A stretch of DNA of 63,980 bases, filler included, from Hausera hauseri (lineage: Eukaryota), in assembly GCA_046269625.1 (NCBI GenBank). It is 13 parts of 13 records of this genome, joined end to end, with 100 filler letters (N's around TTAATTAATTAA, not from the genome) between each part and the next. Parts side by side here need not be neighbours in the genome. Positions count along the whole stretch, not along the records: positions 52,107 to 59,773 come from JBJURY010001792.1; 12 more parts are not named here. One strand, given 5' to 3'. The position numbers and the translations under genes are program-made. Shown here in pieces: positions 817-59,873 of this stretch; within the stretch, counting starts at the first letter, position 1; every line of letters begins with the position of its first letter. The notes beneath the pieces were generated by a model. It made no database searches. It saw nothing but the letters and a program-made list of their open reading frames with translations, and was not told the DNA's origin.

Positions 817-1539
817 CCAGTTCGATTCATTTTTCCAGCATCCAACGTCCGCCGTTGTCAAATTACGTAACATATCGTCGAGTTTATTTCTGTTTCGTCT
901 GTCTTCTTCGCTGTCAAGTAGTCTTGACCAATTTACTTCGTAGGGCAATCTTCTCGCTGCTTTTCATGTTAAGCTTACCGCTCTATTGATTTCGCTCTCC
1001 CGGTTAGGGTTTATCTTGACAGCCAAGTATAGTAGTACTTTTCTCAACTCTTCATTGGTATTTTCTACCATGATCCTTTCTATTACCTATTCGTCGGTTA
1101 AGTTACGTTTTGCTAGTTTAAAACGTAAACTTCTCATCATTCTAGCTGCTTCGAAAATTATCTTTTCCTTATCATCTAATGCATCATCTCGAAGGCTCGA
1201 ATAATTTACAATTCGTATTAAATTCTTCATTAACTCGCTTAATTCCTCATTGTTTGTACTGGAGTCGGAATCAATATCTGTCTCAGTTCTCTAATCAATT
1301 CTCCATTATAGTCAACTTCTTCACGCGTTTTCTTAGGTCTACCCATTGGACGTTACAGCTTTTGGCCCTTATTGGTTATTTCACTCGGTGGTACTAAATT
1401 TATATCATATTGTTCCTTATCTTTATCCGTTTGTAAATACTCAAAATTCATTGCAGCATCTCGGAATTCCATAATTTGTCCTATGCATTGCTCTGTCTTG
1501 GCCTTACGCGTGACTTCCTCTTTTGTCTGTTTATTAGAT

Positions 1540-1756
1540 ATTGTTATTACTATGAGGTTTGTTTCGTCGGGGATAATCCCGTCGTCTATTAATTGTTCTA
1601 GGTCGTCGAGTATTCTACCTCTAAAGTAGAATCTGTAATTTAGCTCGTTTGTTTCACCATTGTTTATCAACCTTTCTCTTATATCTTTTACATAGGAATA
1701 GGTAGTTAATTCGCATTCTTTTCATCCATCCACTCGGATGATATCATTACTTTCAT
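1540..1756 (-). pseudogene. Ubiquitin-like (beta-grasp) domain within the retroelement polyprotein
   Basis: Across one frameshift it reads MKVMISSEWMDE/ECELTTYSYVKDIRERLINNGETNELNYRFYFRGRILDDLEQLIDDGIIPDETNLIVITIS, matching ubiquitin MQIFVK...DTIENVKAKI...[20 protein letters not shown]. No C-terminal GG. Confidence 0.7.
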
Positions 1757-2459
1757 CGCTACCTCAGGTTTAGTCCTTAATATTTTAGCATATTTTTTAT
1801 TAAAAATTTCGGCACCGTGCTATAAATTATGTTCTCACTAGATAATTTAGTTAAAGTTGGAATAAGTTGTCTTAGTCTATTTTCAGTAATATTTACGTTA
1901 ATTAGTTCAACCAAATCTTTTTCAGTTAGCGCTGAATCCAGAAGCATTTCCACATTGAATCTCCTGTCTTGCGGACATGTTTCTATTTCGTTTAGCTGTA
2001 CTGGAGTCATAGGTTTTTCCGGCAAGTATTTCGTAGAAGTATGCATCCCATTTTGGTTCGTTACTGACCTCGGGAAGTCCAGTATCTATCCCAATTGTTT
2101 TTGGTCTCTGTACATTTTCCCTAATTTCTTTCAATCTTGGTTGTATTTCCTTCATCTGCGTAGTCGAAAAACCAACTCCATTTCCGCAGCCATATTGAAT
2201 CATTTTCAGTAATTCCCCAAATTCGTTAGAGTCGATGAGCCCCTTTTGGTGATAATCTGTTAATTCGATGATTACATCCTTTTGACATCTCTGCACAAAT
2301 TCTCGTTTATTTTTAATCTCTGATTCGGCAAAGGCATATTTGTTTCGATAGGCTTCAAGCTCTTTTGTTATCTCATCTAACCTTGTCGCTCTTTATTTCG
2401 TTTTGATACATGTTTCTTCTACTTTCTGTATCTTGGGCATCAATTGCCTCATCTTTTCG

Positions 2460-3842
2460 TCACTCATACATCTTATTTATAATCTTTGAGTCAGGGTCCA
2501 TTGCATCCGACAACTTCTTTACGAAATTGTATTCCTGGAAACTAAAATGTGGGTCATTTCTTATTTTTGTCAACGTGGTATGGAAATTCTGATCCGATCC
2601 GGCCATCCATTTTTGTGGTTTATGCAAGACTTTTATTACGTCGGTTAGCATTTCTCGATGTCCTGGACAAATGTCTAAGATTTCAATGTCTTGTACAGAA
2701 ATTTCGTCGATCGGTTTTCCTGTTAAGTATTGGACCCATTCTAGTCGGACAATCCTTAACTTTGAATTTACATCGTAAATCATATTCCGTTTTCCCGTAA
2801 AGTTCGTCTCTTCGATCAGTTTGTAGATTTCCTCTTCCATCATCAACGCTTCTCGTTCCTTTTCCATAAATTTCAGTCGTCGTAATGCTTCGAATTGAGT
2901 GCGAATGTCTATTTCTATCCGCACTGTGCCTAAATCATGTGCACTTTCCTCTAGATGCTTCTTTACCATTGGTTCGCTTTGAGGAAATTCCTTCTTTCGA
3001 TCTTCTACTAATTTGGTTAATCGCGTTATTAGTTCAGACCACTCCGGCAGTTGATTTGCGATTATCGGTTTTGCCATTATAGCCTTATCTAGAATCTTAT
3101 ATGCATCTTCTAACTCATTGTCTGGTCCTCTTAGGAAATTCATAATCCAGCCGGCATAACTGAATTCATTTTTATATTCGTCCAAATCTATAGTACAGGC
3201 TTTCACTATGTATTTGGTTTCTTCGTTATTTGGAGACATAATTCGGTTTTTCAAACTATAAATCTGTACTCGCTTTTCATTCTCTATCTTAATCCGATTT
3301 TCTAGGTTTGTATATTTTTTAGGTGTAGCAAATGCAATTTTTATCATCTCCATCAAGGAAGGAATATCTATTGGGCCTATACCCGATATTTCTAAATCGA
3401 TATTGCTTCGATGGTTAACCGGTTTTTCCCTAAGCCGATTAATCACTGCATTCCGGATTTCGTCCATCATACGTTCTATATTACGGACTACTCTCTTCAG
3501 TTTTGGTTTGGCTTCTAAGGTAGATAATAACGTTTGAGCTTTCGTAACTTTTACATCGACACTATCATCGTTTTTACTCCATCCTTCCGAAAATTCTACT
3601 CCGCTTTCAGTCCATGATTCTAATTCCTGCTTCCATTTTAACAACGTTTCGGTTGATACTTATTCGGGTTGTTTTAAGTTGATTGCTTCTTCAAGCTTAC
3701 CTTTACTGTGTAATTTTAGGATTTTGTATAATCTCTCCGCATATTGTTGTTCTTTTCCGGATATATCTACTTGTTCGCTGATCTGCTTGAGTCTTTCTAA
3801 ATTTTGCTGCAGTATTTCTCGATTGTGGTATCTAATTCTCAT
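2460..3842 (-). pseudogene. Long charged, probably helical region of unknown function in the retroelement polyprotein
   Basis: 394-aa open frame plus an upstream 60-aa piece, E/K/I-rich, no recognisable motif. Confidence 0.5.
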
Positions 3843-4066
3843 TCTTTTTATCTTGTTGGCGTTTTTCCATGAACGTCGGACGTTCCATTGTTTTGGGTCG
3901 AACTAATCGATGTTCACCGTTTTTTCCTCAATAGTGGAAAGTGGGCAAATTTTGTTAATTTCGTTTCTGGTGTATTCAAACTATGGTCCACGTTACTTTC
4001 TACAACGATGTTCGGATTCTCTTTTTCTTCATTTTTCTTTCTACTTATTTTGGAGCGTGACCGACT

Positions 4067-24011: not shown

Positions 24012-24483
24012 AGGGCCCAAGTTGAGAATTGATAGCATAAGTTTAAGGTCGTAAGACCAAATAAATTTTACACCTTCTAAACTTATCAATTCTGACAACT
24101 GTATTTATAACACTTTTGATTCTGACCTTGATGTTTTTACCCAATAGAATTTTAGACTAGAAATATTAACTAAAACAAAAAATTTGAAGTAATTAATTTT
24201 CATTCTTATTCACATTACCCATTTGTATTAATCTTTAAATTTAAAACCATAAACAACCTAAGAATACCATCAGTTCTGAAATAATAAACAGACCAAATTA
24301 GAACAAATTCTGTAAACAAAATTGCGATTTATTTGTAAAGTTTATTTATAAAATTATTTGTGCAGATGAAATATACATTTCTATTTGGAATGTCTTCCTA
24401 GGTAAGAGTTTCTTTCTTTATTGTAATTTTAACTTTCCTAATATTTATTGCAATCTAACTTTACTAACATTGCCCCACGCTTA
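24012..24483 (-). mobile_element. Putative PPT plus start of a 3' LTR
   Basis: The minus strand reads AAGCGTGGGGCAA then TGTTAG (TG at 24469) after the last ORF piece, followed by non-coding AT-rich sequence to the contig end. No second LTR is available to confirm. Confidence 0.35.
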
Positions 24484-25408
24484 AAGATTTGTACTTTTAT
24501 TTATAGGTGAAAAACGCTATAAAATATAATTACAGTACATATACCATGCAACAACAAAAAAAACTGAAATTACAGAGATATAAGAGTAAAGGAAAGAAAA
24601 TTAGATCACATAGTTCAATTAATCAGATTGTTATCACGTCAATGTCCTCCCTATCAGTCTTTTTGTTTTCCTTCGTGATTTCTTCTGGTTTGTTCGTCGT
24701 GTTGTTTTCTCCTGTCATTTCTTTGGGTATTAGGTTGTTTCGTATTTTAGCCAAAATGTCAGATGGTTTCCTCTCCTGATCAAGTCTAATCTTCTTCCGA
24801 AGCTTCACTGTTTCTACTGTATTTCCAAAGTGATAGTCATATTCATCATCCTTAAACAGTCGGTAAATTGAGTATTCTTGTTCGTCGTCATTCATTTCCT
24901 TTATCGGAATCCAACTGTTTTTTTTTCTTGCCTAACTACTAGTAATCCTGATAAAGTATGAGCGCTACTCTTTGTAACAACATTGGTAATCGCTTGTGCA
25001 GGGATAACTACTTGACATTTAAGTTCCTTAATGTTCGAAGCTCTTTCCGGGTTCATCTCAATTTTGAGATCTAAAATATCTGTAAAATTTCTGTAAGGAA
25101 TAAGTAATTTTCTTTCCCCAGTTGTTTTAGTATACTGTATTGCTATCAATCTATTACCAATTGACTCCCAGTCCGTTATCTGCTTATCGAATTCCTAATT
25201 GTAACGAAGCACTTTTCTCTTCCATAATCTCATCCAAGACTATAGGAATTATTAAGCCATTTCCCATAACTGCTAACAGTAATCCATTAATTCGAACTTT
25301 ATCTTTATTGGAATTTATAAGAGTACGGAGTAAGTCTTTCATCAATTCGTTACCCTTTATAGGTTCTGTTTGGACAGCTACGTTGGTAAAGTTTATTGTA
25401 TTCCAGTT

Positions 25409-26299
25409 TCATTTGGTGCTCTTAGTAGGAATTTCTTCATCATCGAACATTGGTTCTAGGATTTTACAATCCATCGTTTCGAATTCCTCTTTGTCAATCA
25501 TTTCGTCAGTTTTTATCGATTTAGTTTTATTTCCTTTCGTAAAAGTGGCATCGGTTTCGTATTTCCATTGCAATCCAGTTAAATAGGATTTATCACGATT
25601 TAGGAGATCTCCATGATCTAGAATATTATTGTGTGGGTCAGCTGGAACCCACTCATAGGTCTCTTTCAACTTTCTGTGAGCCCCTATATTGGGCTGAAGT
25701 CGTCCTTTTGTGGTGCTAGGAAATTTGTTTATTTGTAAAAATTCTATTAGTTGACTTATTGTCCTAATTCGGTTGTCCATAGTATTCGCAACATTCTTCA
25801 ATGGATCAAAAACTGCACATGCTGTATTCATGGGAATACACAACGCTTTAAAGGTTTTGTATGCTTCTAACGTCACTATTTTATAACCCAAGATATATTT
25901 TTTGATTTCTATTTGCACAGTTCGAGAGTCCATTCCATTCTTAATTTTGTCCCATGAGATGTCATGTCGTATATTATTTAAGTTGTGGATTACTCTTCTA
26001 TGTGTTGTCACTTGGTTAAAAACAATATCATCATTCTTTTCAGCTATTATTATCTCTACTGGGAGCTGGACCTGCAGACCATTGGATTTATGTCCATATG
26101 CAAATGATACAGCTATGTATCTAATGCTGTTTGATTTACTAGTATATAAAATATTCGGTTCTCCCATAAGGTCTTCTTCAGTCGGTTCTTCCTTATATTT
26201 CAAAGGCAATAAGATTGGAATTTTTCTTTCTCTAAAAATTTCTATCATTCCTATATTAAGTATCTCTTGATATGAGTCTGGTTCTTGATGGGTCGACAA
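25409..26299 (-). CDS. REXO4/ISG20-like DEDDh exonuclease fold with degenerate active site, probable retroelement cargo
   Basis: YIAVSFAYG..VEIII..IVFNQVTT..HDISWDKIKNG..TVQIEIKKYILGYKIV..FKALCI parallels YVALDCEMVG..VSIV..VYDxYV..SGIRPENLKQG..VVQKEVxxxLxGRILVGH..DLKVL. The acidic residues are absent. Confidence 0.55.
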   Translation of the reverse strand: MSTHQEPDSYQEILNIGMIEIFRERKIPILLPLKYKEEPTEEDLMGEPNILYTSKSNSIRYIAVSFAYGHKSNGLQVQLPVEIIIAEKNDDIVFNQVTTHRRVIHNLNNIRHDISWDKIKNGMDSRTVQIEIKKYILGYKIVTLEAYKTFKALCIPMNTACAVFDPLKNVANTMDNRIRTISQLIEFLQINKFPSTTKGRLQPNIGAHRKLKETYEWVPADPHNNILDHGDLLNRDKSYLTGLQWKYETDATFTKGNKTKSIKTDEMIDKEEFETMDCKILEPMFDDEEIPTKSTK

Positions 26300-26948
26300 G
26301 ATAGTTTATCTGACAAGATTCCTGTTCTGAAATAATTTCTAATGAGTTTTTACGCTCTCTTCCTTTCCCGAATGTTAGCATAATTTTTCCTATTGCCAGG
26401 TATACAGTTATTCCTTTGTTGTTTGATGTCCATTGTGGTAATCTAAAGGTTGTATCTGAATTGAATATCTTAAAAGGTAAAATTTGACGATTACGCTGTT
26501 CCTCGTATTTGAATGCGTTGGGAATCTTTGTAACTTCATTTATTGGACTTACCGAATTATTGATTTGTTCCATTATGTTATCATAAAATGAATAAGTCAT
26601 TTGTTTTCTGTACTGAGCTTCTGAATTCCGTTATCATCTTTATCTCTCCATATTGGATATTTGAAGTAATTCTGCTTTCCAATTTCTGTAGTTTTGCCAA
26701 TTAGTCGTTTGCTTCCGGATTCCGTAGCCGAATTGCATATTCTCTTAGACATGTTTCTTTGTGCCACTATATAACAATTTTCTTCGTTTTTATATTCCTT
26801 CAGATCTACTCTGATTTTGTAGCCAATCGTATTTTCATAACTTTTGTTCTTATTGGCCGATGTTTTCAAAAGGGTATGTAATATTATGATTGGTCAAATC
26901 ATCATACTTGCTACGAGTGTGTCTTTCATCAGGTTTTCCTTAAGGTAA

Positions 26949-28101
26949 TTACTCAACCCTATTAACTAGACTAAAAATCACAATGGGTGCAAAGCAAAAC
27001 ATAGTGCTTGTCATTTCATTTACATTCTCTTCATTACTTGCTATCATGTTTGAAGCTGTAGGCTCTCTATTTCGATTTTGCTCCTCAATTCTATTTAATT
27101 GTGAGCAAATCTGATTTCCTCTAATTATAGAGTAATATGATTCATCATTTTTCTTTTTACATCTGGGTTTTTTACCCAATGCAATACTTATCATAAGGAT
27201 TATTCCAATACCTGCTATTAATATGAATATCCACCAGTATTGTAATATATATTTTTCGGTAGTTATAATTGAAACACTAGTTAATTTCTATTTTTCGTCG
27301 TCGTCATTATATCTTATGTGACGGTATTGATCTATTGCTGGTTGTGTTTTTATGGCCACAATCTTTGAATTATCTAAGGTCTCTATTCTAACAAGGTAAT
27401 TAGTATCGGGTGTTAGTTTTTCACAGAAGTTTCGTTTATTTGTCTCGTACTTGATAATAACTTTTTCATGAGAACCTGTGCAAGTTAGTGTAATATTTCG
27501 TTCATTTATTGTGTTTTGCAATATTATTTCAATGCGATCTGTATAAGGCTTTAATTTGAATTTGATAGGAAATTCTTTCATCCATTGCGTGGTTTAGGTT
27601 GGACTGTTGATTCTCGATCCCGATCTCGATTTGGCTCACGATTTTGATCACGGTCCGCTCGATCTTTCTCTCGATCTCCCCTACCTTTAATGGTGGGTAT
27701 AGTCCATAATGTTGATGTTGTCGGTTTTTTCACAGAATGTGGTGAAGTTATATGTTGCTTAGCAAAAATCGGAATAGGTATGTGTGGTTTGACCGCGAAG
27801 AGAATAGGAATACGGTGAGAATGCACTCTAATAGATTGTTTATTTTCCAGCGTTTGGTATGCATCTAAACGGATTCTGTACCAGACGTATGGATAGAGTG
27901 TGCAACATGAACGGGTATCATTCCGCTTAAGATAACAATAATGTAGTTGTTTTATAGATGTAGAGTTTGGATCAAGCCATATGCTGATTTCGAATTCAAT
28001 TGTAATAACTGCGTAGTGCGAAAATTCATACAAGGTGGTTGTCTTGTAATGTTGATACTAGAAAATTCAATATCATGTTTTAAGAAGTGAGCGATAAAAG
28101 G
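26949..28101 (-). pseudogene. Type I membrane protein: two FN3-like domains, TM helix, basic cytoplasmic tail
   Basis: CTLYPYVWYRIRLDA and CEKLTPDTNYLVRIET (LxPxxxY tyrosine corner). After one stop it reads WWIFILIAGIGIILMISIALG-KKPRCKKK in frame. Confidence 0.6.
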
Positions 28102-28201: not shown

Positions 28202-31200
28202 TTATCGAGAAAAGAAATACCCGGTGCAAAAACCAAAATCGATAAGAAAGACGTAAAGTTAACGCAATATTTCGATAATAAGATTGACTTTCTGATCAAT
28301 TACGTAAGGAAAGAAATTAGAGGTTTATATCGTGAAATAATAATGAACGAGTGTAAGTTGAATTACGAAATAATGCGTAATAAAATGGCGCTGGTAATAA
28401 CAAATCCGGACATGGTAGCACCTGTAATGCCTTTCGGTGATGGAATTATGGGCAGAATAATGGGCGAGGTATTAATAACAATAGAATGCAAAAGGGTAGA
28501 AGTATCGATTAGACCCACGGAAGAATGTACAATGGAGCTACCTGTTGTTTACCATTCTGAAGCACGATACATTATGCCAGTAACTAGGATACTTCTCGAT
28601 GCTAATGTAAAGCCCACTCCGTTATACAATTGTACTTTTAACATGTCACCGATGTTTAAGATTGATAATGATAAATGGATAAGAATGCCCAAGAGAGAAC
28701 CAATATCTAAACCAGAGACATTGAGTTTAATTAATTTACAAAGAAATCAAAAATTTGAACCGCTGACCGGAATATCACAGGGAGGAATTTATACACAACA
28801 AAATTTAGAAGATTATCGACGTATGTTGTTGTTTCCTCAGCAAAGACAGAGGGTCATAACGGAATTGACAAGGAAAGTAATGTGGGATGGTGAAGGTTCA
28901 CCACAGTGGGAAAACCTTATGGGCAAGGATTATCTAAAGAAGGTGACAAAAAACGTAATGGAAAAGATGTGGGGAAAGTTCCTGTATTTTGGTCAAGCAG
29001 CCTCCGGTTTTCTAGCCATATATTTTATTATTAGTGCCATTCGAACAGTATTTACGGCACTCGGTAAAGCATATGGAATACATGCAGCAGTAGGATGCTC
29101 CTGGAAGATTTTAATAGCGGTAATACCAGCAGTAGCAAGTTGCTTCTTGGCAAACCATGATGCCCGATGGAAGAAGAAAATATTAAAAAGGAGAGACATG
29201 AAAGAATCCCTATATAGTATACCGGATGATAATGATGTTGAATATAGCCAAAGGAAAGTAAAGAAACGAGTACCTAATATTAAACAATTAATGCTCAAGA
29301 CACGAAAACCTAAGTACAAACAGAAATTAATAACAGATCTACCTCGTTTAGATCCCGCGGATGAGTATCATGGGCAAATTTATAATGAACAACCGTTAAT
29401 AAATCCTTCGGCTCCCCGATACGTGGTACATGCAGGACTGTACCCTACGCAACAAGTACAACAGATGAGACAAAGTCTTGATGACAATATAGTCCCTTAT
29501 AAGCGTGAATCCACATACATCGTTGACGATAAAAACGAACAACAACCACCAATAAGACCCGAAATTGAAATAGAAGTGAACGGGTACCCCATGATGGCTT
29601 TGTTAGATACTGGGTCAACCACGACGATAATGAGCAAGAGCCAATTACCAAAGGAATTAAGAAAAAGGTTAAGAAAACCAACCACCACAATGGTAAACGT
29701 AGGAGCCTTCGGTACGGAAGAGGAAATCAAAATGGTCCTAGATGCTAAAATTAAAATTGGTGAGCAAACCTTGAAGCATACCATAAGAATAGCCGATAAT
29801 TTGACTAATGAAATTTTAATTGGATGTGACGTATTAAATCAATTGAAAGACGCATATATCGATATGAGAACATGTCAACTGAAGACATTCAGTGAAGACT
29901 GTAATGAAGGAATGGTTTCACTAACAAAAGACATTACAATCCCACCGCGGTCGGAGATAATAGTCCCGGGAAGAGTAGAAAGTCGAACGTTACCAGAGAT
30001 TATTTATTTTGAAGCATTCCCTCAAGTCATGGAGAAATATGAAGTACTAATTGCCCCTCATGTAGATAAAGTAAGAGATGGGAAAATCCATTTACGCATC
30101 TGCAACACAACGAATAAAGAGAAACGATTACGAAAAGATACTAGATTGGGAAAAGTAATAACAACGGAAGAAATAATAAAAGAAGGAATTTACTCAGTAA
30201 TATCAGACGTGGATAGAATAGAAAAAATGATGACAAAAAAATTGAAAAAGAAATCAGACGAAGACAAAAGAAATAAAACCACGAATATTGATTGGAACGA
30301 AAGGTTAAAAAAATGCGAAATTCTAAGTAAAGAAGAAAAGGAAATGTTAGTTAAACTATTAGAAAAGAATGCCAGTCGATTCGCACAAACCGACTATGAT
30401 CTCGGTACCATGAAAGTAATACAGCATGTTATTAAATTGAAGGATGGACAAGATAAACCAATTAAGAAAAGACCATACCGACTGGCCTATGATAAGAAGC
30501 AGGAAGCTCGCAAAATAATAAAAGAGATGAGAGAAAATAAAATAATTCGACCAAGCTGTTCACCATGGACAGCGCCAGTAGTAATGGTTAAAAAGAAAGA
30601 CGGAAGTATGAGATTTTGCATAGACTATAGAGCCTTAAACGAAATAACAGAAACGGACACATACCCATTACCGAGAATCGACGAGATACTGGATAAATTA
30701 CACGGATCAACTATATTCACAACTATCGATTTACAAAAGGGTTATTGGCAAGTGGAGGTTAAAGAAGAAGACAAACCGAAAACAGCCTTCTCAATTGGAG
30801 AAGGGTTATGGGAGTTCAATCGGATGCCCTTTGGACTGAAGAATGGACCTCCAACGTTCCAAAGAGGAACAGAGCTCCTGCTGTTGGACGCTCCACACGC
30901 CATGGTATATATAGACGACTTAATAATAGCATCATCAAATTTTCAGCAACACTTAAAGTATCTGCAAGATCTTTTTGATAGATGCGAGATAATGGGCCTA
31001 AAAATAAACCCTAAGAAGTATTCATTTGCACAAGCGGAGGTAGCTTTCCTCGGACATAAAGTAGATAGACATGGTGTAAGACCTCAGGATAAGCTCTTAG
31101 GGAAAATAAGAGATTTCCTTAAGCCAAGTACAGTTAGAGAACTACGTCAGTTTCTAGAGTTAGCCAACTATTATCGAAGATTCATAAAGGATTTTAGTAA

Positions 31201-31459
31201 AATTGCTAAACCTCTGTACGAGTTATTACGCGAAGATTTAAACAATGTCATTTGGACCAACGAATGTCAGAAAATTTTCGAATATTTAAAAGATAGATTA
31301 TTAACGGCTCCTGTATTAATCTACCCAGATATGACCAAACCATTTATTTTGGCAACGGATGCAAGTGATTATAGAATAGGAACAGTATTATTACAAAAGG
31401 GCGAAGATGGAAAAGAACATCCTGTCGCCTATGCTTCACGAAAACTTAATAAACATTAA
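28202..31459 (+). CDS. Polyprotein: chuvirus-like glycoprotein C-half, TM segments, aspartic protease, RT, RNase H (5'-truncated, premature stop in RNase H)
   Basis: One frame open from the contig start. GEVLITIECKRVEV..RPTEECTMELPV..PVTRIL, GGIYTQQNLEDYRRMLLFP and WGKFLYFGQAASG match chuvirus G motifs. Then ALLDTGS, RFCIDYRALN, YPLPRID, MPFGLKNGP, YIDD, LATDAS. Confidence 0.92.
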   Translation, partial: LSRKEIPGAKTKIDKKDVKLTQYFDNKIDFLINYVRKEIRGLYREIIMNECKLNYEIMRNKMALVITNPDMVAPVMPFGDGIMGRIMGEVLITIECKRVEVSIRPTEECTMELPVVYHSEARYIMPVTRILLDANVKPTPLYNCTFNMSPMFKIDNDKWIRMPKREPISKPETLSLINLQRNQKFEPLTGISQGGIYTQQNLEDYRRMLLFPQQRQRVITELTRKVMWDGEGSPQWENLMGKDYLKKVTKNVMEKMWGKFLYFGQAASGFLAIYFIISAIRTVFTALGKAYGIHAAVGCSWKILIAVIPAVASCFLANHDARWKKKILKRRDMKESLYSIPDDNDVEYSQRKVKKRVPNIKQLMLKTRKPKYKQKLITDLPRLDPADEYHGQIYNEQPLINPSAPRYVVHAGLYPTQQVQQMRQSLDDNIVPYKRESTYIVDDKNEQQPPIRPEIEIEVNGYPMMALLDTGSTTTIMSKSQLPKELRKRLRKPTTTMVNVGAFGTEEEIKMVLDAKIKIGEQTLKHTIRIADNLTNEILIGCDVLNQLKDAYIDMRTCQLKTFSEDCNEGMVSLTKDITIPPRSEIIVPGRVESRTLPEIIYFEAFPQVMEKYEVLIAPHVDKVRDGKIHLRICNTTNKEKRLRKDTRLGKVITTEEIIKEGIYSVISDVDRIEKMMTKKLKKKSDEDKRNKTTNIDWNERLKKCEILSKEEKEMLVKLLEKNASRFAQTDYDLGTMKVIQHVIKLKDGQDKPIKKRPYRLAYDKKQEARKIIKEMRENKIIRPSCSPWTAPVVMVKKKDGSMRFCIDYRALNEITETDTYPLPRIDEILDKLHGSTIFTTIDLQKGYWQVEVKEEDKPKTAFSIGEGLWEFNRMPFGLKNGPPTFQRGTELLLLDAPHAMVYIDDLIIASSNFQQHLKYLQDLFDRCEIMGLKINPKKYSFAQAEVAFLGHKVDRHGVRPQDKLLGKIRDFLKPSTVRELRQFLELANYYRRFIKDFSKIAKPLYELLREDLNNVIWTNECQKIFEYLKDRLLTAPVLIYPDMTKPFILATDASDYRIGTVLLQKGEDGKEHPVAYASRKLNKH

Positions 31460-33165
31460 AAGAAATAAGCCGTAATAGAGAAAGAGTTATTAGCAATGAT
31501 ATTCGCCTTAGAAGTATTTTCACCGTATATCAGCGAAAATAAACCGCTTGTGATTTATACAGATTATAGACTAAAACAACATGAAAATCCAAATAGCAGA
31601 TTACTACGATGGGCTCTAAAGTTACAACCATATACATTTAATTTTCAGTATAAGCCTGGCACACGAAACGCTAATGCTGATTACTTATCGAGACTACCTG
31701 ATAAAACAGAAACAAAAGCAGTAGTCGCAGCCGTATGGAGTATGGATGGATCAGTTGAGAAGATTAAAGCAAATCAAAATGAAGATGAAAAAATAAGAGC
31801 CATTAGGAATTACATAAAAGATAAAACCGTGCCCGTTGACAAAGAGTTAACCCGTCATCTGTCTCACTTTAGCGAAGCGTACGAGGAGAAGGAAGGATTT
31901 CTGTACTTTATTAGTCAAAATGGACCTGCATTAGTAATTTCTAAGAAAAATAGAGCTGTTCTACTAACACAATATCATGATGGATTACTTGGAGGACATC
32001 AATTAGCCAATGACATTAAACAAATTAAAACGAAAATACTTTTGGCCCATGATAACAAAAGATGTACAGGAATGGTGTGAGAGCTGTAAGCTGTGTGCCA
32101 CACGGAAAAACACCGGATCAAAATTCAAAGCACCATTAAAAGTATGGGATAACCCTCCAGCACCATTCGAGTTTACCGCTATGGATATAACGGGGCCATT
32201 ACCGCTGACACGGAACGGAAATAAATATATTCTAGTCTTTATCGACTACTTCACCAGATGGGTGGTTGCCCTACCAATGTCTGATATGAAGGCAGATACA
32301 ATAGCTGAAAGATTTGTGGAGAATATAGTATTCAATTATGGAGCTCCGAGAATCCTTTTGACCGATCAAGCATCAAATTTGACTGGAACTGTAATGCAGT
32401 CCATATATGATATTTTGAAAATATTAAAGTTACGGTCAACTCCCGGACATCCGGAGAATAATGGAATGGTTGAGAGGTATATTGGAGATTTAAAAGGAAA
32501 ATTACAAACGGTAGTAAATACTAGGCAAGATGATTGGGACGAATACATCAATGCATGTGTTTTCGTCAATCGAACATCAGTTCATGAAGCTACTAAAGAA
32601 ACACCTTTTTATTTAATGTATTTGCGAGATGCAAGACTACCAATCGATCTAGATTTTAACGTAAAACCCACTTCACATTTAATGGCAATAGAAGATTATA
32701 AACAGTTAATGCAAGAACGACTTCAGTTAGCCTATAAAATGATTGGTGATAATCAAAAAGATTATAAATTAAAGTATAAGAAATATTATGATCAAAAGAC
32801 TAAACAGCCTAAAATCAAGGTAGGCGACCGAGTAATGTTATATTCTCCAGCAATAAAAAAGGTAAAACGTCGAAGTTGGATAGACCATATAAAGGACCAT
32901 ATGAAGTGGAAAAAGTAGACCTACCGAATATTTGTCTAAAGAAAAATAATACTTCTGTAAAAGTCCACGTTAACAGATGTAAGCCCGCTGCCAAGGAGAG
33001 CGAACTAAGAAAAGGTGAAAAAGAGTCGGTATGTAGCGTTGGTGAGAGCATTGGTGAGAAGGTAACCGCAAGAGGTTCAATAAATAGACTACAATTAAAA
33101 AGAATATTAGTACTAATTGTCGTTCTATTTCCCTTAGTAATAGGACAGATGACGGATCAAGAAAT
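31460..33165 (+). pseudogene. RNase H C-terminus, integrase with GPY/F module, and a downstream signal-peptide-like segment
   Basis: EKELLAMIFAL, RWALKLQ, NANADYLSR, YHDGLLGGH/YFWP..CKLC, MDITGPLP, TDQASN, NGMVER, PYKGPYEV, VHVNRCK, then RILVLIVVLFPLVIG. Two stops and two frameshifts. Confidence 0.92.
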
Positions 33166-52106: not shown

Positions 52107-54560
52107 GTCCGTATTAAATTGAATGTACGGTTGAAGCCACTTTGACTGACTGAATTGCAAAGCCCTGTGGATTTTTTTAATCTGCACGCCATGTCGCACT
52201 GCCTGCTGTAAAGAAACATAATGGCTGATATATCGTTTTCGATTGTTTAAGTGCAACAATAATTTTTAAGATTTTCCATTTGGTGATGGCAGTTTTGATT
52301 CCTGCAGGAACGGTAGCTGATCATGTTCGTCAATCAGTAATATGGGTGAACTACGTCAACCTCCAAAATGTACCCTGTTTCTGCATCTAGTGGAATAGCC
52401 ATGATATCACTTTGACTGAAATAATCTGCCCATTGGAAATTTCCATAGGGTAAGCTGCATCACATAGCTTAGACATAGAGATTATTTGCGCCAAGGTACA
52501 TGATGAATGACGATGGTATGTATGAATTACTTGACATATTCCTCCTTGTATTGCCCCCTCCAACATCAATATCATATCGTAGTCCTTCAACGCTTGCAGC
52601 TGAACTCCTGTGTATTTCAACATTGCTGACTGTCATTCCGGGAGCCGCAAAAAATCAGCAGGATCAACTTTCTTGTTTGCCATTGTCACATTTTGGAAAC
52701 TCTCGAAAACATCAGCTAGAAGAATCACATAAGTTAGTAGATATACATCACTGTAATCACCCAGTGTCTTACATTTGAATGAGCTCCAAACGTTTTGAGC
52801 ATGTGCATAATCTTCATCGCTAATGCTCGAATGCGAAAATTTGTTGTAAAACATTTACAGAGGTGGTAATCTGGTTTCATCCAATTTGTTTATGACGTGA
52901 TGTAGTCATCGGGAAAACACCATTTCGCTTAACTCAGTAAAATGTGTCCATCTAGAAGTATCTTCTGGTCTCCTTTAGTTCACTATCTTGCAGATTTTTC
53001 ACCAGTTTATCCAAGCTGTTGCTCATAAGTTTTAGACTGTTTTTAAAACGCAGCTGCATCGTTCCAAAATGCAGTGAAAGTAATATACTTTTCTTTACTG
53101 TGTGGAATAACATCAATTTTTCCATTCACATTTCGCAGTTCTCTGATAATAAAATGTGAATCGTATCCACTTAAGTTGTGAAATATTCCGGGGATAAATT
53201 TAACAGTTGGACCACGGTATTTTCCCCTGATGTGACAGTGATCTCGAACTTTGTGATTTTCAGCGGTAAATTGTTTTGCACACAAGTAGCAAACTGAAAC
53301 ATTTTTCCATTGGGTTTCCTTAATTGCTGTAATATTTATTTTTTTCGGTTTCATATCTTCGATACTGTGAGCAAGTTCTTCCAACCGTGTCATAAAATTG
53401 ATGCTGCATTTCGGGTCCTGTATAGGTATGGCTCGTTTGCAAATCCTTTTGAAAACATACAAAAAGACATTACCTCATGCAATTGATAGGCAGTATTACT
53501 TGAATGATCCTTGTTTGGGTTACGTGTGTGGATTGGAGTCAAGATAGACTCAAAATCACAGTAAATAACGAACGGTACTCGTAGAATTTTTTTATATTCC
53601 TTAAAATAGACGATATCCTCCTGGGGAAAATCTAACTTGACAGATTTTTTCTCATTGAAACACAATTTATGTTCCTTTAGTTTGCCTTCAGCTAATTTTC
53701 CATGTTGATCATCAAAATGTGAAAAACACGTCTTGCATATTAATATACCATTCATACTCTTCGTGATCTGTGATCTAATTAACCGACCAATATTTTTTAT
53801 CTACACATAGTGGCTTTTTTCACCATTACTTAATAACAGCAAATCCCGATGGTCTGATTTTTCTTCATTGCAAACCTTGAGTGGATATATTTTATTCTTT
53901 TTATCAATCGCAAAAATATTGATAGATATATCATTGAAATTTTCAAATTTCCTGATATCAAGAAACGATGAAGGGTATGTTATACAAGAAAAATTATATG
54001 GATGATCAAGGTTTGTGTATTTGTCAACCCGATGTGGATTTGTGTCTAAAAATTTCGATAGAATTGAATACTTGAAGCATAAATCATCATCAATGTTTTG
54101 TACATTAATGCATGCCTTTTATCTTCAATCCATTGAAGCAGCTTAATGTATGATGATCCACGCATTGGGGAATACTTGTGAATCCTCATGTTGAGTCCTT
54201 TGATGTTCGAAAGAGTCCATCCGCTTTTCTTAGCATGGCTTTTTTCGGCTTCAGTTACCAATTTCGTAAACTCTCCATCAAAGAAATCGGTAATTTCTGA
54301 GGCATGCAGGATAGGCTTGCTTTTTGTTTTGAAAGAACTTTTAGATAGTTCACCATCCTTTTCACAGTCAGCCTCGATAACTAGGTTAACTTTCAGGGCA
54401 TTGATTTCTGATAGATTTTCATTTAAGGCTGTGGTTGCATCCGCTTTTGAAAATTCCAAAAATTTAGGGAGACTCTTTTGACCGGTTGCAGGAATAAAAT
54501 GGGTAACAATTTTACGAAAAAGTTACATCGAATATATTTTATTTTTGATAAAGAAATTGT
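52107..54560 (-). pseudogene. polB: Protein-primed PolB (Polinton type, different subfamily) with EndoVII-like insertion
   Basis: SGWTL..KYSPMRGSSYIKL, PFVIYCDFESIL (ExoI), CYLC..KVRDHCHIRGKYRG, FHNLSGYDSHFII (ExoII), LGDYSDVYL..LLADVFESF, KIHRALQFSQSKWLQPYIQFNT. Confidence 0.92.
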
Positions 54561-54624
54561 TCGCTAAATTATTTTAAGTAAACTCAGTACGTGAATAATC
54601 GTCTAAGCAATTTGGAAGCTCAGC

Positions 54625-54892
54625 CGTTCAGGTCTAACCTACTTGACGGCAGTCCGTCTAACTCTCAATAATCAGAACCAAGGAACTACGTAGAAAGTAA
54701 AGCTGAAATAAGCCTCATTGGCAGTTGACCCCGACATATTACCTATAGGATAGGACTAGGTAGGAAACCCATCTGTCTGAACGTACATACCACTGTAAGT
54801 ATAATCCTAAGTATAACCTTGTTCAACCCATTAATTTGAATAAGTCAACAAAGAAAAGTCTCTTCCCAAATAGAATTAACGGGAACTGAACA
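54625..54892 (+). repeat. Putative 5' LTR
   Basis: Bounded by CGTTCAG...CTGAACA (terminal inverted repeat, first base C instead of T) and ends 2 nt before the PBS. Confidence 0.6.
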
Positions 54893-54894
54893 AC

Positions 54895-54912
54895 TGGTGC
54901 CGTGACCCGGGA
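54895..54912 (+). promoter_or_regulatory. Primer-binding site complementary to the tRNA-His 3' end
   Basis: TGGTGCCGTGACCCGGGA vs tRNA-His PBS TGGTGCCGTGACTCGGAT, located right after the LTR-end CA. Confidence 0.85.
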
Positions 54913-55018
54913 CCTTTAGATAAAACCTTTAGAGAAGCAGAAGTAGTTAGTATTCAAAATTACAACTACGAAGGGAACACCTTACCAAGTAGAACCAGAC
55001 GATAATCCGCTCTTTGGA

Positions 55019-56041
55019 TTGGAATTCATAAATCATTTGAGTGAAGAAGACGAAGATAGAATGACCCGGAATGATCATGTAGTAGAGCAGGTGATCCAGT
55101 CCAATGCTAACTTCACCCTGCCAATGAAAAAATTCTCAGAGAAGGAGGACGTACAGGACTTCATCATGGAATACGAGGTATACTCGAGAAGTTTTGGATG
55201 GACGGACCAACAACTAATGGAGAGGTTACGCCTTTACCTGAAGGGAACAGCCCTAACAATCTACTTCCAGATGCCTGAAGATGATAAGAAGGATTGGAAA
55301 ACCGTCGAAGAAAAGTTGCCACAGAAGTTTTTAGTTGATCCCTCTGGAAAAGGAAGGATAGAAGAGTTTATGCGAAGAAGGCAACGGAAAGATGAGACGG
55401 TCCAGGATTTTGTGTGTGCACTGAAGAAATTGGCAGCTAGGGCATATCCTGATGCAACGATAAGAGGTAATGCGTTACTGGCTTAATTCCAATAGAGACT
55501 CGAAGGGAAGTTAAGAACAATAATCCTGCAGGCTGATCCACCCACATTTCAAGAAGCCATAAGGAAGGAACGCAAAGCAGAACGGGACGAAGAAATATAC
55601 AGGTGGAATAAACCCAAAAGATATAAAAATTACGACGATAACCGAAAGAATTATAGTACACAAAAGTATGAACGGTATAACAGAAACAGAAGCCCTTCGC
55701 AAACTTCAGCTGCGGAAGCTGAGTCCGACGCTGAAAAGAAGGTACGATTCAAACTAAAGAACGATGGTGAAAATGCATTTTATAAGAAGAAATCCCCCAC
55801 AAAGGACGGAAGAAAGTTGCCTAATATAGATGCTGAAGGAAGACTAAAATGTTTTAATTGTAACAAGTATGATCACATAGCAAAAATATGTAGATCACGA
55901 AAAAGGAAATCCTCAAAACCTTATAAGCAAAAGAAAAAGGAATATACCTCAGAAACGTCGGACGAGTCATACGATCAAGAGCATAAAACGGAAGAAAGCA
56001 ATAGTGAGCATGAAAGAAAGAATAAAAGAAGAAAAGTGTAA
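55019..56041 (+). pseudogene. gag: Gag (capsid plus CCHC zinc knuckle)
   Basis: FSEKEDVQDFI..GW..LRLYLKGTA..RRQRKDETVQDF..PPTFQEAI and CFNCNKYDHIAKIC, all in one frame with internal stops. Confidence 0.92.
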
Positions 56042-56657
56042 ATTGCATTAATGATATACTATCTCAACGTATGAGAACGCAACTGGATATTGAGGTAAAA
56101 GACTATAAAACCCAGCAAAAGAGATTAAAAGAAAATAGTATTTACGTAGTGGAAGAGAAACCGAAAGGCAGAAAGTCGCGTCAAGGAGGAAAGAAGAGTA
56201 ATAAAAAAATAATCGATGATATCGAATCAAGAGAAACCTCCGTAGAGAGGAGTAACCCAGAAAGGGTAAAAGAATAAAATAAGGACGAAAGAAGAGTAAA
56301 CTCAGTACACCCAAGAGTAGCCCCAGTACACTGGAAACAGAACCAGAGGAAAGCCAACCTACAAAAATTTTCGATGAAACCGTTATTGAACAAGTGATAC
56401 ACGATATAGAAGTAGATTTAGATGCCGAAGATGACATAATCCAAGCAGTGATTGCTATAGACCCTGAAAATATAATAGATGTAAAGGAAGCAACAAGTAC
56501 AATATTAAAGTTAATAGATAATAAGGTATGTACTGATAAGATAAATGAAGTACTATTTTAATTATTACTACTCGCCCACGATACGAGTCCGATAAGAGAA
56601 ATAGCACGGACAATATTGGCCAGGGCAGCTGAAGATGAGAAAGGAAGAAGCGAAACA

Positions 56658-56882
56658 GTAAGAATAATATTAAAAGAAAGAAACCAAGATATGAGGGTTA
56701 TAAGAATGAATGAAACAGACGATGTATTGACATTACGAGAAAAGATTGGAGAACTAGAACCGTTTTATAAGGAAAAGACATATGGATTAATCTTTTATGG
56801 CAGAACACTATACAGCTACGACAATTTGTTACGAGTGGGATGTAGGAGTGAAAACTGTAACCCAATTACGATAACAGAGATA
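56658..56882 (+). pseudogene. Ubiquitin-like domain within the retroelement polyprotein
   Basis: VRIILKERNQDMRVIRMNETDDVLTLREKI..YGLIFYGRTLYSYDNLLRVG aligns nearly gap-free with ubiquitin MQIFVK..EPSDTIENVKAKI..RLIFAGKQLEDGRTLSDYN. Confidence 0.75.
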
Positions 56883-57601
56883 CACCCCAATGCAAGAGCA
56901 GAAGCAACGATAGATAACATCATAAGGGAACTGGAACCTCAAGAGGTTGACGAACAACCATTAGGCAATACACAGGATGTTACGGTGCCAACAGAAGCCT
57001 GAAGGAGAGGAAGACCAAGAGGAACAAAGATAAGTGACATTCGGAATAAACGGGATGGAAATGAAGAAATCGTGCGACGTCTATTATTGGCAGGAACAGG
57101 TACAACGCCAGAATCTATAGATATAGATCCTTTGTTAAGAAAGTTGTTAGCCAAATTACACACGTCATTTGCATCGTTTAATATGCAAGTGGCAGTCCCT
57201 GACGAATTGTTACAGACGTTACGTAACGGCATGTTGAAAATTAGTAGGCAGTTTTATAAAAATATTGGAGAGGAACGAATCAATAAATTACATGAGCAAG
57301 ACTCATTAGAAAAGATGTTTGCGACAGGAATTACGCAAGAAAAGTTTAAACAGCTATAGCCTATTTATTATATAAAGTGATTGTGATCAATCACCAGACC
57401 CAAAATTTAGAAGAAATTGATCGAAGTATTAAAGCAACGGTTAAGGCTTTGAAAGATACGATAGAAAGTTGAGTCCAGTGTAGAGGCGGGTGATTGGAAT
57501 GTCTTACAAAAAATGTAAGAGCAGAAGGATACGGAGGACTAACAGAAACGCCAACCGTCGCACAATCAAACCAACACACGCCAAAACAAGGCATAACGGG
57601 A

Positions 57602-59322
57602 ATGACGATGATGATGATCTTTCAGTTAATTTTAATAACATCGTTACTGATGCCGAAGGCAATGGGAATAGTAGCATACGATTGCTCGAAACCTAAGGAA
57701 GGACAGAAGTATTCCTTAGATGATCTAGAAAAATGTCCCAAAGCTGACCCAGAACAATTAACGACGACCAGCGGTCACAGATATTGGATTTATCAGGAAT
57801 CTGAATTTATAAAAGTCAAGGTCAGGGAATGTTATGTAAAGAAATCTTTTTCCCTGTTTAACTGTGCGTATTATTCCAGAAACTCTGAAATAATTGAACC
57901 AACAACACCATTTGAACCAATAATAATATCGCGTGCAGAATGCCAAGATGCCTTTAAAATCGGAGTGATAACGATACAAAATGTACAGATATCAGCAGTA
58001 CGAAATAAGATAAAATATACTCGAATATTTAGAGCGGGAAGAATAGGTAAAACGAGGGAAGGCACCTGCAAAGGGGTAGATTACGATGTGGAAGGATCGA
58101 TAGCACCAAGAACAGTGGCAATTGAAGATTATCAAGTTGAATTAAAGGAATACAAAGGATTATTAGACTCCCAGACCAAACTCATGACGACAATGAGCGA
58201 GTGCGAATATGAAAGTGGCGAATTCGATACTAGCGCATTCAAAATGACGTGGGAAGTAACTTCAAATAGATGTCATTTGACCCTGCTAAAAGAAGGAAAA
58301 TTCAATAAGACAGTGGGAAAAACAGGCGAAAAGGAAGCAACAACATACAAGGAAGGGATCAAAAAAGTAAAAATGACGGACGTCGCTACGATAGTCTATT
58401 CAGAAAATCCTGAAGAAATGATGCGATTTAAAAATACGGGAACAACGAATAAATGTGACGAAGAAATATCCAAAACTAATTATAAAGGTATTTATCTTTC
58501 ATCTAAAGCGATAGTACAAGCAAAGACAAAGATAGATAAAAAGGACATAAAGTTAACGCAATACTTTGATAACACGAATGAGTTTTTAATCAATTACGTT
58601 AGAATAGAAATTAGAAGTTTATATAGGAAAATAATAATGAACGAGTGCAAGTTAAACGATGAAATTATACGAAACAAGATGTCGTTAGTAATAATAAACC
58701 CTGATATGGTAGCATCATTGATGCCATTTGGTGACGGAGTAATCGGAAGAGTAACTAGGATATTACTAGACGTCAATGAAAAACCAGTTCGGCTGGATAA
58801 CTGTACCTTTAATATGGCACCCATGTTTAAACTAGATGAGAAGAGGTGAATCAGGATGCTAAATTTTAATAAATGTTAAATTTGATAAATTTACAAAGAA
58901 ATCAAAAATTCAAACCACTTACGGGAATATCTCAAGGAGGAATTTACACACAACAAAATTTAGAAGATTATCGACGAATGTTGTTATTCCCCCAACGGAG
59001 GCAAAGAGTAATAACGGAACTAACAAGAAGAGTAATATGGGACGGCGAAGGCTCAACACAATGGGAAAACCTGATGAGAAAAGATTATTTAAAGAAAGTT
59101 ACACGGAATATCATGGAAAAGATGTGGGGGAAATTTTTGTATTTTGGCCAAGCAGCCTCAGGATTTCTCGCGATATATTTTATTACTACTGCGATACGAG
59201 TGATATTCACTGCTATTAGCAAGGTTTATGGCATACACTCAGAAGTAGGTTGTTCTTGGAAGATTCTGATAGTAGTAATTACGGCCGTAGCTAGTTGTTT
59301 TCTAGCGAAACACGATGCTTAA
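57602..59322 (+). pseudogene. env: Chuvirus-like envelope glycoprotein (signal peptide, ectodomain, TM), decayed
   Basis: Signal MTMMMIFQLILITSLLMPKAMG then IVAYDC, Cys-rich ectodomain, GGIYTQ..LLFP, WGKFLYFGQ and TM segments. Stops and a 41-codon deletion relative to the copy at 28202 onward. Confidence 0.88.
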
Positions 59323-59873
59323 TGGAAAAAGAAAATGTTTAAAACAAGAAATAAAAAGAATTCTCCGTATAGTAATGTAAACAATAAAAACGATGATGAT
59401 GATGATTTCGACGTCAAGAAAAAAAGTGATAAATATATAAGGAGATGGAGACATTTTTTACTAAAACCACGAAAACAAAAATATAAACAAAAGTTCATAG
59501 TTGACTAACCGCAGTTAAATCCAGTAGACGAATATCACGAACGAGTTTATATCGAACAAACAATAACAAATCCATTAGCTCTTCAATATTCAAGGCATGA
59601 GATGTACCTTATGCATCAAATACTACAAATAAAGCAGAATTATGATGAAAACCTCACACCGTACAATCGCGAGCCCACTTGCAAAACAACGGATAAAAAT
59701 GAGCCACAATCACCTTTAAGGCCAGAGATAGATATAGAAGTAAACGGATATCCAATAACGGCCTTGTTGAATANNNNNNNNNNNNNNNNNNNNNNNNNNN
59801 NNNNNNNNNNNNNNNNNTTAATTAATTAANNNNNNNNNNNNNNNNNNNNNNNNNNNNNNNNNNNNNNNNNNNN

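Follow-up and report, generated by a model that had tools for sequence, protein, structure and literature searches.

A contig in the genome of Hausera hauseri (assembly GCA_046269625.1) carries a gene for a viral-type glycoprotein between a retroelement gag and the start of a protease gene. Is this glycoprotein part of the element, and is the element of a new kind? The window, i.e. the whole analysed stretch of 63,980 nucleotides, includes the element copy on its own contig (JBJURY010001792.1, 52107-59773), flanked by artificial N-spacers. We conclude that the copy at 54625-59773 is very probably the decayed 5′ half of a high-copy Ty3/gypsy element, likely of a flatworm, that follows a compact Burro plan and whose active members likely make one polyprotein. 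The copy reads LTR-type end, primer-binding site (PBS), capsid/CCHC, ubiquitin-like domain (UBL), AT-hook-like motif, signal peptide, PF24664 glycoprotein, transmembrane (TM) region and protease (PR) start, and its features are as follows.

54625..54892, plus strand: putative 5′ LTR; 3′ end (...CTGAACA) supported, 5′ start uncertain (~54520 to 54625)
54895..54912, plus strand: PBS, complementary to a tRNA 3′ end in CCA (TGGTGCCGTGACCCGGGA), presumably of tRNA-His
55061..55582, plus strand: Gag capsid (Ty3/Arc-like); stops at 55484 and 55493
55850..55891, plus strand: single CCHC zinc knuckle (nucleocapsid); PF00098, 21.7 bits against a cut-off of 20.8
56026..56400, plus strand: charged linker of low complexity; the reading frame changes near 56030 and again near 56280
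56406..56636, plus strand: four-helix domain ahead of the UBL; stop at 56559
56661..56876, plus strand: UBL; PF00240 E 0.012, below cut-off
57003..57023, plus strand: AT-hook-like motif RRGRPRG, immediately after a stop at 57000
57117..57500, plus strand: predicted Bcl-2-like domain with BH1-like and BH2-like motifs; frame change near 57344, stops at 57347, 57470 and 57491
57602..57667, plus strand: internal signal-peptide-like segment, by hydropathy; small-residue (-3,-1) cut site before IVAYDC
57668..59319, plus strand: Env, a mononegavirus/chuvirus-type fusion glycoprotein (PF24664); in-frame 123-nt gap near 58752, stop at 58847, frame change at ~58865
59146..59310, plus strand: TM helix (~59146-59208) and second hydrophobic segment (59245-59310), read as amphipathic
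59320..59712, plus strand: basic cytoplasmic tail joining env to protease; stops at 59320 and 59506
59713..59773, plus strand: aspartic protease, first 19-20 codons, aligning to the RVP/gag-asp_proteas region of the 28202 copy
28202..33165, plus strand: second copy, on another contig; C-terminal half of env, TM, tail, PR, dUTPase-like segment and RT-RH in one open frame of 1084 codons

An initial annotation had presented a full 5′ order for this copy. Everything that it named is in place: the LTR-like end CTGAACA (54886-54892), the PBS, the capsid with CCHC, the UBL, RRGRPRG, the internal signal peptide, the AYDC glycoprotein followed by a TM region, and the protease start at the contig end. 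However, the order was not full, as it omitted the helical domain before the UBL and overlooked the Bcl-2-like region between the AT-hook-like motif and the signal peptide. The copy is also diverged from the one at 28202, as that annotation held, with a DNA identity of 69-78%.

The element family is repeated and high-copy. In two runs, X1 and X2, 21,278 and 2,252 contig pieces matched the element contig (7.7 kb) over its full span, and 30 of 30 bins were covered in both. The run with the best DNA match may be the window's own source; X2 has a small word share (0.09) and was used solely as contigs placed on the window. Contig depth has a peak in both runs at 54863-54916, across the end of the LTR and the PBS. 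The 5′ end of the LTR is less certain. A repeat upstream of it ends near 54517, an inverted-repeat match of 6/7 gives a weak hint of a start at 54625, and summed contig depth at ~54620 rises from 84 to 769 in X1, with no such rise in X2. TGTTC at 54558 was dropped as a possible start because most X1 contigs differ there. The putative LTR contains TATAA at 54800 and 54812. Its CA end, 2 nt before the PBS, was observed on this contig, which ends inside PR without a second LTR. The first 12 nt of the PBS occur once in the window, against 0.0017 expected by chance. Like the initial annotation, we assign it to tRNA-His, presumptively; ARAGORN found no tRNA genes in the window, so there is no local tRNA with which to compare the PBS.

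The gag portion is of Ty3/gypsy type, with a Ty3/Arc-type capsid and a CCHC nucleocapsid. The capsid (55118-55582) matches the dArc2 capsid with an E-value of 7.9e-5, and the capsid region is 45% identical to residues 16-217 of a related protein, P0001. This relative has Gag, CCHC, UBL, Bcl-2-like domain, signal peptide and Env in one ORF, collinear with the window copy at 31-45% identity. The four-helix domain falls within a 31%-identity match to P0001 376-698 and corresponds to helices H11-85 of the P0001 model, with equal positions in P0153 and P0006; no fold match to it is among those listed for the P0001 model. For the UBL, an alignment profile gave a best E-value of 8.6e-5 against the PDB, and the P0001 model matched ubiquitin, SUMO and ISG15 folds with Z up to 9.2 and an rmsd of ~2 Å. 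RRGRPRG, which we take to be AT-hook-like, has counterparts in P0001 (NRGRPKG) and P0006 (RGRGRPKR).

The region at 57117-57500 is homologous to P0001 623-759, for which a Bcl-2 fold is predicted. The top four fold matches of the P0001 model are all Bcl-2 proteins: CNP058 (Z 10.4, rmsd 2.8), A179L (9.5), MCL1 (9.5) and BHRF1 (9.2). The model belongs to P0001 rather than to the window's broken region and comes from a noisy 10-row alignment (pLDDT 70), and a Z of 10 is middling for helical bundles. Sequence matches are weak (PF00452 E 0.055 in P0001 and 0.00096 in P0009; Bcl-xL E 0.007-0.01). The window's own pieces of this region gave no Pfam Bcl-2 match and no BLASTP match to P0005, and an Atlas search with the region gave no usable match. 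Foldseek with the predicted fold returned nothing at E≤0.001, listing ubiquitin-like chains first and a poxvirus Bcl-2 protein at rank 47. A nearly blind word-index search with the UBL-Bcl2 region found no match among shorter proteins. If the prediction holds, the Bcl-2-like domain is the best clue to the element's identity, since a Ubi/SUMO-like and then a BCL2-like domain ahead of env, here with the fold tested on the collinear P0001, is the Burro arrangement.

The signal-peptide-like segment opens with four ATGs (MTMMM). A hydrophobic stretch occurs in its place in all 14 long relatives, and 13 of them have a small residue at -1. The AYDC glycoprotein that follows from 57668 matches PF24664 with E-values of 2e-35 and 1e-27; a sequence search of Env against the PDB gave no match. 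This class of Env is named HSV/gB-type in PMC13524379. The whole ectodomain, the signal peptide and the TM helix are conserved in distant relatives. Codon differences in env between the two window copies (58 synonymous versus 20 nonsynonymous of 143, and 28 versus 16 of 78) point to purifying selection. In most relatives the second hydrophobic segment scores weakly or does not reach the threshold. The topology of one TM helix followed by an amphipathic segment is inferred; if that second segment spans the membrane, it would break the topology proposed below. The tail has 45-52% amino-acid identity to the open frame of the 28202 copy, with changes enriched at third positions.

In the contig at 52107-59773, pol is represented only by the PR start, PLRPEI...ITALL (59713-59769, ~19 codons), and the contig ends at the active-site motif. 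The rest can be read in the 28202 copy, which has the Ty3/gypsy order RVP, RVT_1, RT_RNaseH, Integrase_H2C2 and rve; its open frame is followed by the remainder of RH, by IN and, at 33089-33154, by a second stretch that resembles a signal peptide. Its RT matches Ty3 best (E 5e-73), which supports the earlier assignment to Metaviridae and led us to reject a BEL/Pao identity. Between PR and RT, a segment at 29912-30190 has dUTPases as its top three PDB matches (E 0.06-0.11); these are weak, and they occur in the place expected of a Burro-like element.

Could the glycoprotein be a chuvirus-like endogenous viral element (EVE) that landed inside a gypsy element by chance, or could the contigs be chimeric? 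The PF24664 family consists of glycoproteins from negative-strand RNA viruses, glycoprotein EVEs of Jingchuvirales often adjoin gypsy fragments without shown capture (according to the available text of PMC10084718), and the contigs are short pieces from an assembly rich in repeats. However, env and pol are fused in frame in the 28202 copy, and env is followed by PR and/or RT in 13 of 21 scanned relatives and in all three cluster members. The initial annotation had argued from the glycoprotein-protease linkage shared by the two window copies against misassembly or chance nesting, rightly in our view, and had placed env within the element between gag and pol, which the analysis supports. It had also named a glycoprotein bounded by its own target-site duplication or termini as evidence against its reading; we found that no repeat brackets env, whose borders have just (GAT)n and scattered 7-8-mers, and the A-rich composition continues across them. 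Env shows synonymous bias and clusters with envs embedded in polyproteins. In a quick tree of 61 of 144 proteins that cover the C-terminal half of env (16 polyprotein-embedded and the 45 best others) plus two window rows, in which P0014 is a long branch, one group (SH-aLRT 100) unites the two window envs with two short fragments and every one of the 16 polyprotein-embedded envs; the other 43 glycoproteins fall outside it. As for chimerism, independent X1 contigs span the junctions from linker to env (57517-57831) and from tail to protease (59464-59773). We therefore regard chance nesting or misassembly as refuted by the in-frame fusions, and give it almost no weight.

With env belonging to the element, the best reading of its expression is a single polyprotein cut by signal peptidase and the element's protease, as was originally proposed. 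This copy is itself incapable of such a mechanism. It has 10 stops along the homologous path, four frame changes and the 123-nt gap in env, and so lacks the intact ORFs that mark GAG-ENV-POL errantiviruses in PMC13524379. Because it is broken, a single ORF is demonstrable only in other copies and relatives. Gag runs into env in one frame in P0001, P0006, P0010, P0011 and P0050; the 28202 copy joins env to pol, and P0050 contains capsid, CCHC, env, PR, RT, RH and IN within one ORF. The full chain is pieced together from different relatives, and no natural ORF was found that has UBL, Bcl-2, env and pol together. By Pfam, gag or CCHC precedes env in 3 of 21 scanned relatives, and a nearly blind word-index protein search gave one match among longer proteins and none at near length.

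Alternatively, expression could be split, with Gag ending past the zinc knuckle and followed by a programmed frameshift, or with Env made from a spliced or subgenomic RNA that starts at MTMMM. The gag frame closes at 56039 and is followed by an open frame in another register, the signal peptide begins with the four ATGs, and a 1:1:1 ratio of Gag, Env and Pol is unusual among gypsy elements. Given that the copy is broken and that linker 56026-56400 has no detectable match to P0001, a frameshift after the zinc knuckle could occur in this subfamily. However, the frame change near 56030 is explained by decay, since there are three further frame changes and 10 stops. The uninterrupted gag-env frames of the five relatives also argue against split expression, as does the fact that just 6 of 14 relatives have a Met 22-40 residues ahead of the cut. 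Burro, too, is described as a single ORF in the available text of PMC6431247. We consider split expression improbable.

Under the polyprotein reading, the order would be Gag, helical domain, UBL, AT-hook, Bcl-2-like domain, signal peptide, Env, TM, tail, PR, dUTPase-like segment, RT, RH and IN. Translation would begin in the cytosol with gag; Env would then be directed into the ER lumen by the internal signal peptide, and host signal peptidase would cleave two residues ahead of AYDC. The Env TM helix would bring the chain back to the cytosol, so that the protease would be made tethered to the Env tail, from where it could release Gag, RT, IN and itself. After cleavage, the signal peptide would remain with the upstream piece, holding Gag to the membrane at the site of Env accumulation, and could double as a C-terminal anchor for the Bcl-2-like domain. 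Such an anchor is a normal feature of Bcl-2 proteins. However, no Bcl-2 domain was detected in P0003, P0006 or P0153, which do have the signal peptide, and the tail-anchor role is therefore optional at best. The UBL and Bcl-2 modules would likely be host-modulating cargo that keeps the expressing cell alive.

It is also conceivable, though we think it unlikely, that env and cargo are retained because they act inside the cell or serve the host, for instance in membrane anchoring or cell survival, and not for infectious particles. An IAP module of Burro1 is reported to protect planarian stem cells (work cited in the available text of PMC13465017), and gB-type elements are without demonstrated particles or transmission (PMC13524379). 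By contrast, the conservation of ectodomain, signal peptide and TM in distant relatives and the purifying selection on env speak against such a role. This alternative is about function alone and does not conflict with the architecture described here.

The gene order itself is not new. The planarian giant Ty3/gypsy element Burro/GYPSM1 was described in 2019 as a Gag-UBL-BCL2-Env-PR-dUTPase-RT polyprotein (Arkhipova & Yushenova 2019, PMC6431247, citing Grohme 2018 and Jurka 2007). Judged from this published description and not by direct sequence comparison, the two share Gag with CCHC, Ubi/SUMO-like and BCL2-like domains, a dUTPase-like domain between PR and RT, one polyprotein, and an in-frame env between gag and pol with mononegavirus glycoprotein matches. 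In our material the in-frame env is seen in the 28202 copy (env-pol), P0001 (gag-env) and P0050 (gag-IN). In addition, GAG-ENV-POL gypsy elements with gB-type env have been catalogued in Nematoda, Bryozoa and Platyhelminthes (Chary & Hayashi 2026, PMC13524379). Since both were already published, as far as the available Burro text goes, we reject the earlier suggestion of a candidate new lineage of enveloped Metaviridae; the element is a compact new member of the known Burro-like kind.

It is classed as a compact relative and not as Burro itself because of its size, its single CCHC and the lack of Pfam matches to the giant's cargo. In the window copy ~869 codons separate the first gag ATG from mature Env, whereas the available text of PMC6431247 gives Burro ORF1 4,873 aa, extra domains before env, and two or three CCHC motifs. 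The ORF1 of ~4,900 aa and internal region of up to 25 kb described there for Burro sensu stricto (Burro1-4/GYPSM1) were not found, and neither the window copy nor P0001 has a Pfam match to MATH, BIR, RING, SMC or ankyrin. The compact member narrows the core to Gag, UBL, Bcl-2-like domain, Env and Pol.

The HSV/gB-type "errantiviruses" of PMC13524379, especially Smed_errantivirus_1-6, share with our element a Ty3/gypsy pol, a gB-type env before pol and multiple copies; the PF24664 match at 57668-59319 lies between CCHC and the PR start. By eye, the window env (YWIYQESEF..VRECYVKK) resembles the Platyhelminthes_C1a rows of that study. The motif aromatic-x-[VI]-YQE occurs in 11 of 157 fetched proteins, all of them close env relatives, and is absent from the nematode env rows of its supplement. 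Its nine flatworm rows have "none" or "others" as PBS, whereas we assign a His-type PBS to the window copy. With this copy the Burro-like group gains a member that is compact and His-primed. The study treats three ORFs and contains the words Burro, Bcl, ubiquitin and polyprotein zero times each. Our copy thus links two literatures, on Burro cargo (PMC6431247, in its available text) and on GAG-ENV-POL errantiviruses (PMC13524379), that do not name one another. GAG-ENV-POL elements are reported not to be monophyletic (PMC13524379). Non-canonical nematode ERVs (Sacco et al. 2022, as described in PMC13524379) likewise combine a metavirus with an RNA-virus glycoprotein and share the flipped order of env and pol. 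According to the available text of PMC7642597 (Dezordi 2020), Anakin has an equal glycoprotein class in an LTR retroelement, but is BEL/Pao, whereas our element is Ty3/gypsy by RT.

What seems less well described in the literature is a likely second, post-integrase membrane protein, together with the placement of the signal peptide as a Bcl-2 tail anchor. The former is unmentioned in the Burro text of PMC6431247, figures apart. We tentatively suggest a two-glycoprotein retroelement, although the odds are somewhat against it. Its polyprotein would enter the ER twice, first with a gB-type fusogen whose signal peptide is the Bcl-2 tail anchor, and then with a post-integrase type-I receptor-binding partner. 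This reading was not found in the literature searched, which covered Burro in its text. If the post-integrase protein is a virion attachment protein, it would bear on how elements with only a gB-type fusogen achieve entry, an open question (PMC13524379). A second signal-like segment, with a TM further on, is found in each of the five relatives whose ORF continues far beyond integrase, and the contig at 24012-28101 carries a matching ectodomain and TM for the post-integrase protein.

The envelope glycoprotein (Env) belongs to the element. In the second element copy (28202..33165, plus strand; the 28202 copy), one open frame comprises the C-terminal half of env, its transmembrane segment (TM) and tail, the protease (PR), the reverse transcriptase (RT) and most of RNase H (RH). 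As the initial annotation had claimed, the 54625-59773 copy is diverged from this one (69-78% DNA identity), and the two are collinear across the tail-to-protease junction. The env codons that differ between them are mostly synonymous (58 versus 20 of 143, and 28 versus 16 of 78). No repeats bracketing env were found in the 54625-59773 copy, whose A-rich composition is even throughout. The in-frame env-pol arrangement, the synonymous bias and the lack of a bracketing repeat argue, as previously proposed, against a misassembly or a chance nested viral insertion. Contigs from two coded public runs cover 30 of 30 bins of the 7.7-kb contig, although one run may be the source of the window. Single pieces from one of these two runs, X1, span the linker-to-env and tail-to-protease junctions.

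A search of the env-PR part against 1.84 billion representatives gave 917 matches, and domains were scanned in 21 top or long matches. Env is followed by PR and/or RT within one ORF in 13 of these 21 relatives, and gag or a CCHC knuckle lies ahead of env in three. One relative, P0050, is a 2,146-aa ORF containing capsid, CCHC, env, PR, RT, RH and integrase (IN). In two matches, P0119 and P0135, env is placed after integrase-type domains. All three further cluster members have env and then PR. A quick tree built on the C-terminal half of env places both window copies in one group with two fragments and every one of the 16 polyprotein-embedded envs (SH-aLRT 100); 43 other glycoproteins stand apart.

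The 54625-59773 copy fills the final 5.1 kb, at the 3′ end, of contig 52107-59773. Its start and flank are as follows.

52107-54520 (ends near 54517), minus strand: very high-copy flanking repeat, different from the element, first 2.4 kb of the contig
54886-54892, plus strand: CTGAACA, LTR-type end, from sequence
54895-54912, plus strand: primer-binding site, complement ends in CCA (12-mer chance expectation 0.0017 occurrences)

We take the primer-binding site to correspond to tRNA-His; the 5′ end of the LTR is putative. Every feature in the order originally described, from LTR end to protease start, is present: gag has an Arc/Ty3-type capsid and a single CCHC knuckle, and is followed by a ubiquitin-like domain (UBL) with a weak Pfam match, RRGRPRG, a signal-peptide-like segment, a PF24664 glycoprotein with a TM and 19 codons of protease. 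This copy is dead. Stops lie on the homologous path at 55484, 55493, 56559, 57000, 57347, 57470, 57491, 58847, 59320 and 59506, the frame changes near 56030, 56280, 57344 and 58865, and env has a 123-nt in-frame gap relative to the 28202 copy, with 5-nt microhomology. The flanking repeat weakly matches endonuclease VII (E 0.0012) and presumably resembles a Polinton/adintovirus-type DNA polymerase region. The 12 spacers between the window's 13 short contigs (N44-TTAATTAATTAA-N44) are artificial, so neighbors across any spacer are unlinked. The next contig (59874-63980, minus strand) holds the decayed pol (RT-RH-IN) of an unrelated gypsy element without env; this pol shares 28-35% identity with that of the 28202 copy.

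The initial annotation missed a predicted Bcl-2-like domain before the signal peptide. From capsid to env, the relative P0001 (1,130 aa) is stop-free and collinear with the 54625-59773 copy. It gives a weak Bcl-2 match (E 0.055) in the interval from the AT-hook-like motif to the signal peptide; in another relative, P0009, the same match reaches E 0.00096, and Bcl-xL is also matched. All 60 matches listed for a profile of the UBL-Bcl-2 region were either ubiquitin-like or Bcl-2 proteins. In the AlphaFold model of P0001 residues 372-790 (pLDDT 70), a ubiquitin fold is accompanied by a four-helix domain and a helical bundle. The bundle's four best structural matches are all Bcl-2 proteins, with Z values of 10.4-9.2, which are middling for helical bundles, and rmsd 2.8-3.7 across 112-117 residues. 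BH1- and BH2-like motifs in this region agree with a Bcl-2 fold. The window copy's own broken pieces of the region have no Pfam match.

In the 28202 copy, PR and a Ty3-like RT are separated by a dUTPase-like segment. A third, more diverged element follows the same plan.

1-4066, minus strand: element with a PF24664 env containing AVYDC (E 9e-18)

Its much longer pre-env region has a UBL-like stretch, RPMGRPKK, a helical region and a signal-like segment, with the UBL and Bcl-2 labels tentatively assigned by eye.

It had been proposed that the polyprotein is cut by signal peptidase and the element protease. The domain order and in-frame fusions are demonstrated in natural copies, and we infer the processing itself. 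The products would arise as one polyprotein, although a programmed frameshift after the zinc knuckle could operate in the window copy's subfamily. Under the single-polyprotein reading, the internal signal peptide would translocate Env and then be cut by signal peptidase; among 14 relatives, this segment is hydrophobic in all, has a small -1 residue in 13 and an upstream Met in six. The Env TM would bring the chain back to the cytosol, where a membrane-tethered protease may free Gag and the enzymes. Another hydrophobic segment follows this TM; since most relatives show it weakly, we interpret it as amphipathic. Bcl-2 proteins normally have a tail anchor at their C-terminal side. The leftover signal peptide would occupy the position expected for this anchor, and would anchor the upstream Gag-cargo piece.

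The suggestion of a candidate new lineage was not upheld, since GAG-ENV-POL gB-type gypsy elements are already catalogued in Nematoda, Bryozoa and Platyhelminthes in PMC13524379, which cites Sacco 2022, and features are shared with Burro, a giant planarian element. By eye, the window element's env is similar to the Platyhelminthes_C1a env rows there. The window element works like Burro, but lacks its giant size and MATH/BIR/ankyrin domains; we therefore class it as a GAG-ENV-POL gypsy element of compact, Burro-like form. Its likeness to Burro and to the Platyhelminthes rows suggests a flatworm host. In other papers, chuvirus glycoproteins are described in BEL/Pao elements and as EVEs (PMC7642597, PMC10084718), and Burro1 is reported to be expressed and to have an IAP module with anti-apoptotic activity, citing Lee 2026 (PMC13465017, PMC8532177).

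Potentially still new is a second signal-like segment and TM following integrase, in frame in all five relatives whose ORF extends well past integrase. The papers searched gave no description of such a second membrane protein, which the Burro figures, Grohme 2018, Sacco 2022 or Lee 2026 may cover. The window has these candidate parts.

33089-33154, plus strand: signal-peptide-like stretch at the contig end in the 28202 copy, beyond the C-terminus of integrase
27291-27593, minus strand: ORF of post-integrase ectodomain type, from a profile match, in contig 24012-28101
26952-27287, minus strand: TM following this ORF, from sequence

The ORF was the sole included match (E 1.4e-4) among 1,113 ORF pieces for a profile built from the post-integrase ectodomains of three relatives. 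The stretch 26952-27593 is probably the 3′ part of an element with this ectodomain. A two-glycoprotein polyprotein whose signal peptide doubles as a Bcl-2 anchor is a tentative idea that we consider somewhat improbable.

Several relatives (P0155, P0003, P0006, P0010 and P0153) have at least two aspartic-protease-like domains in a single polyprotein. In P0155 (4,844 aa) there are as many as seven such stretches, alongside ankyrin and C2H2 matches.
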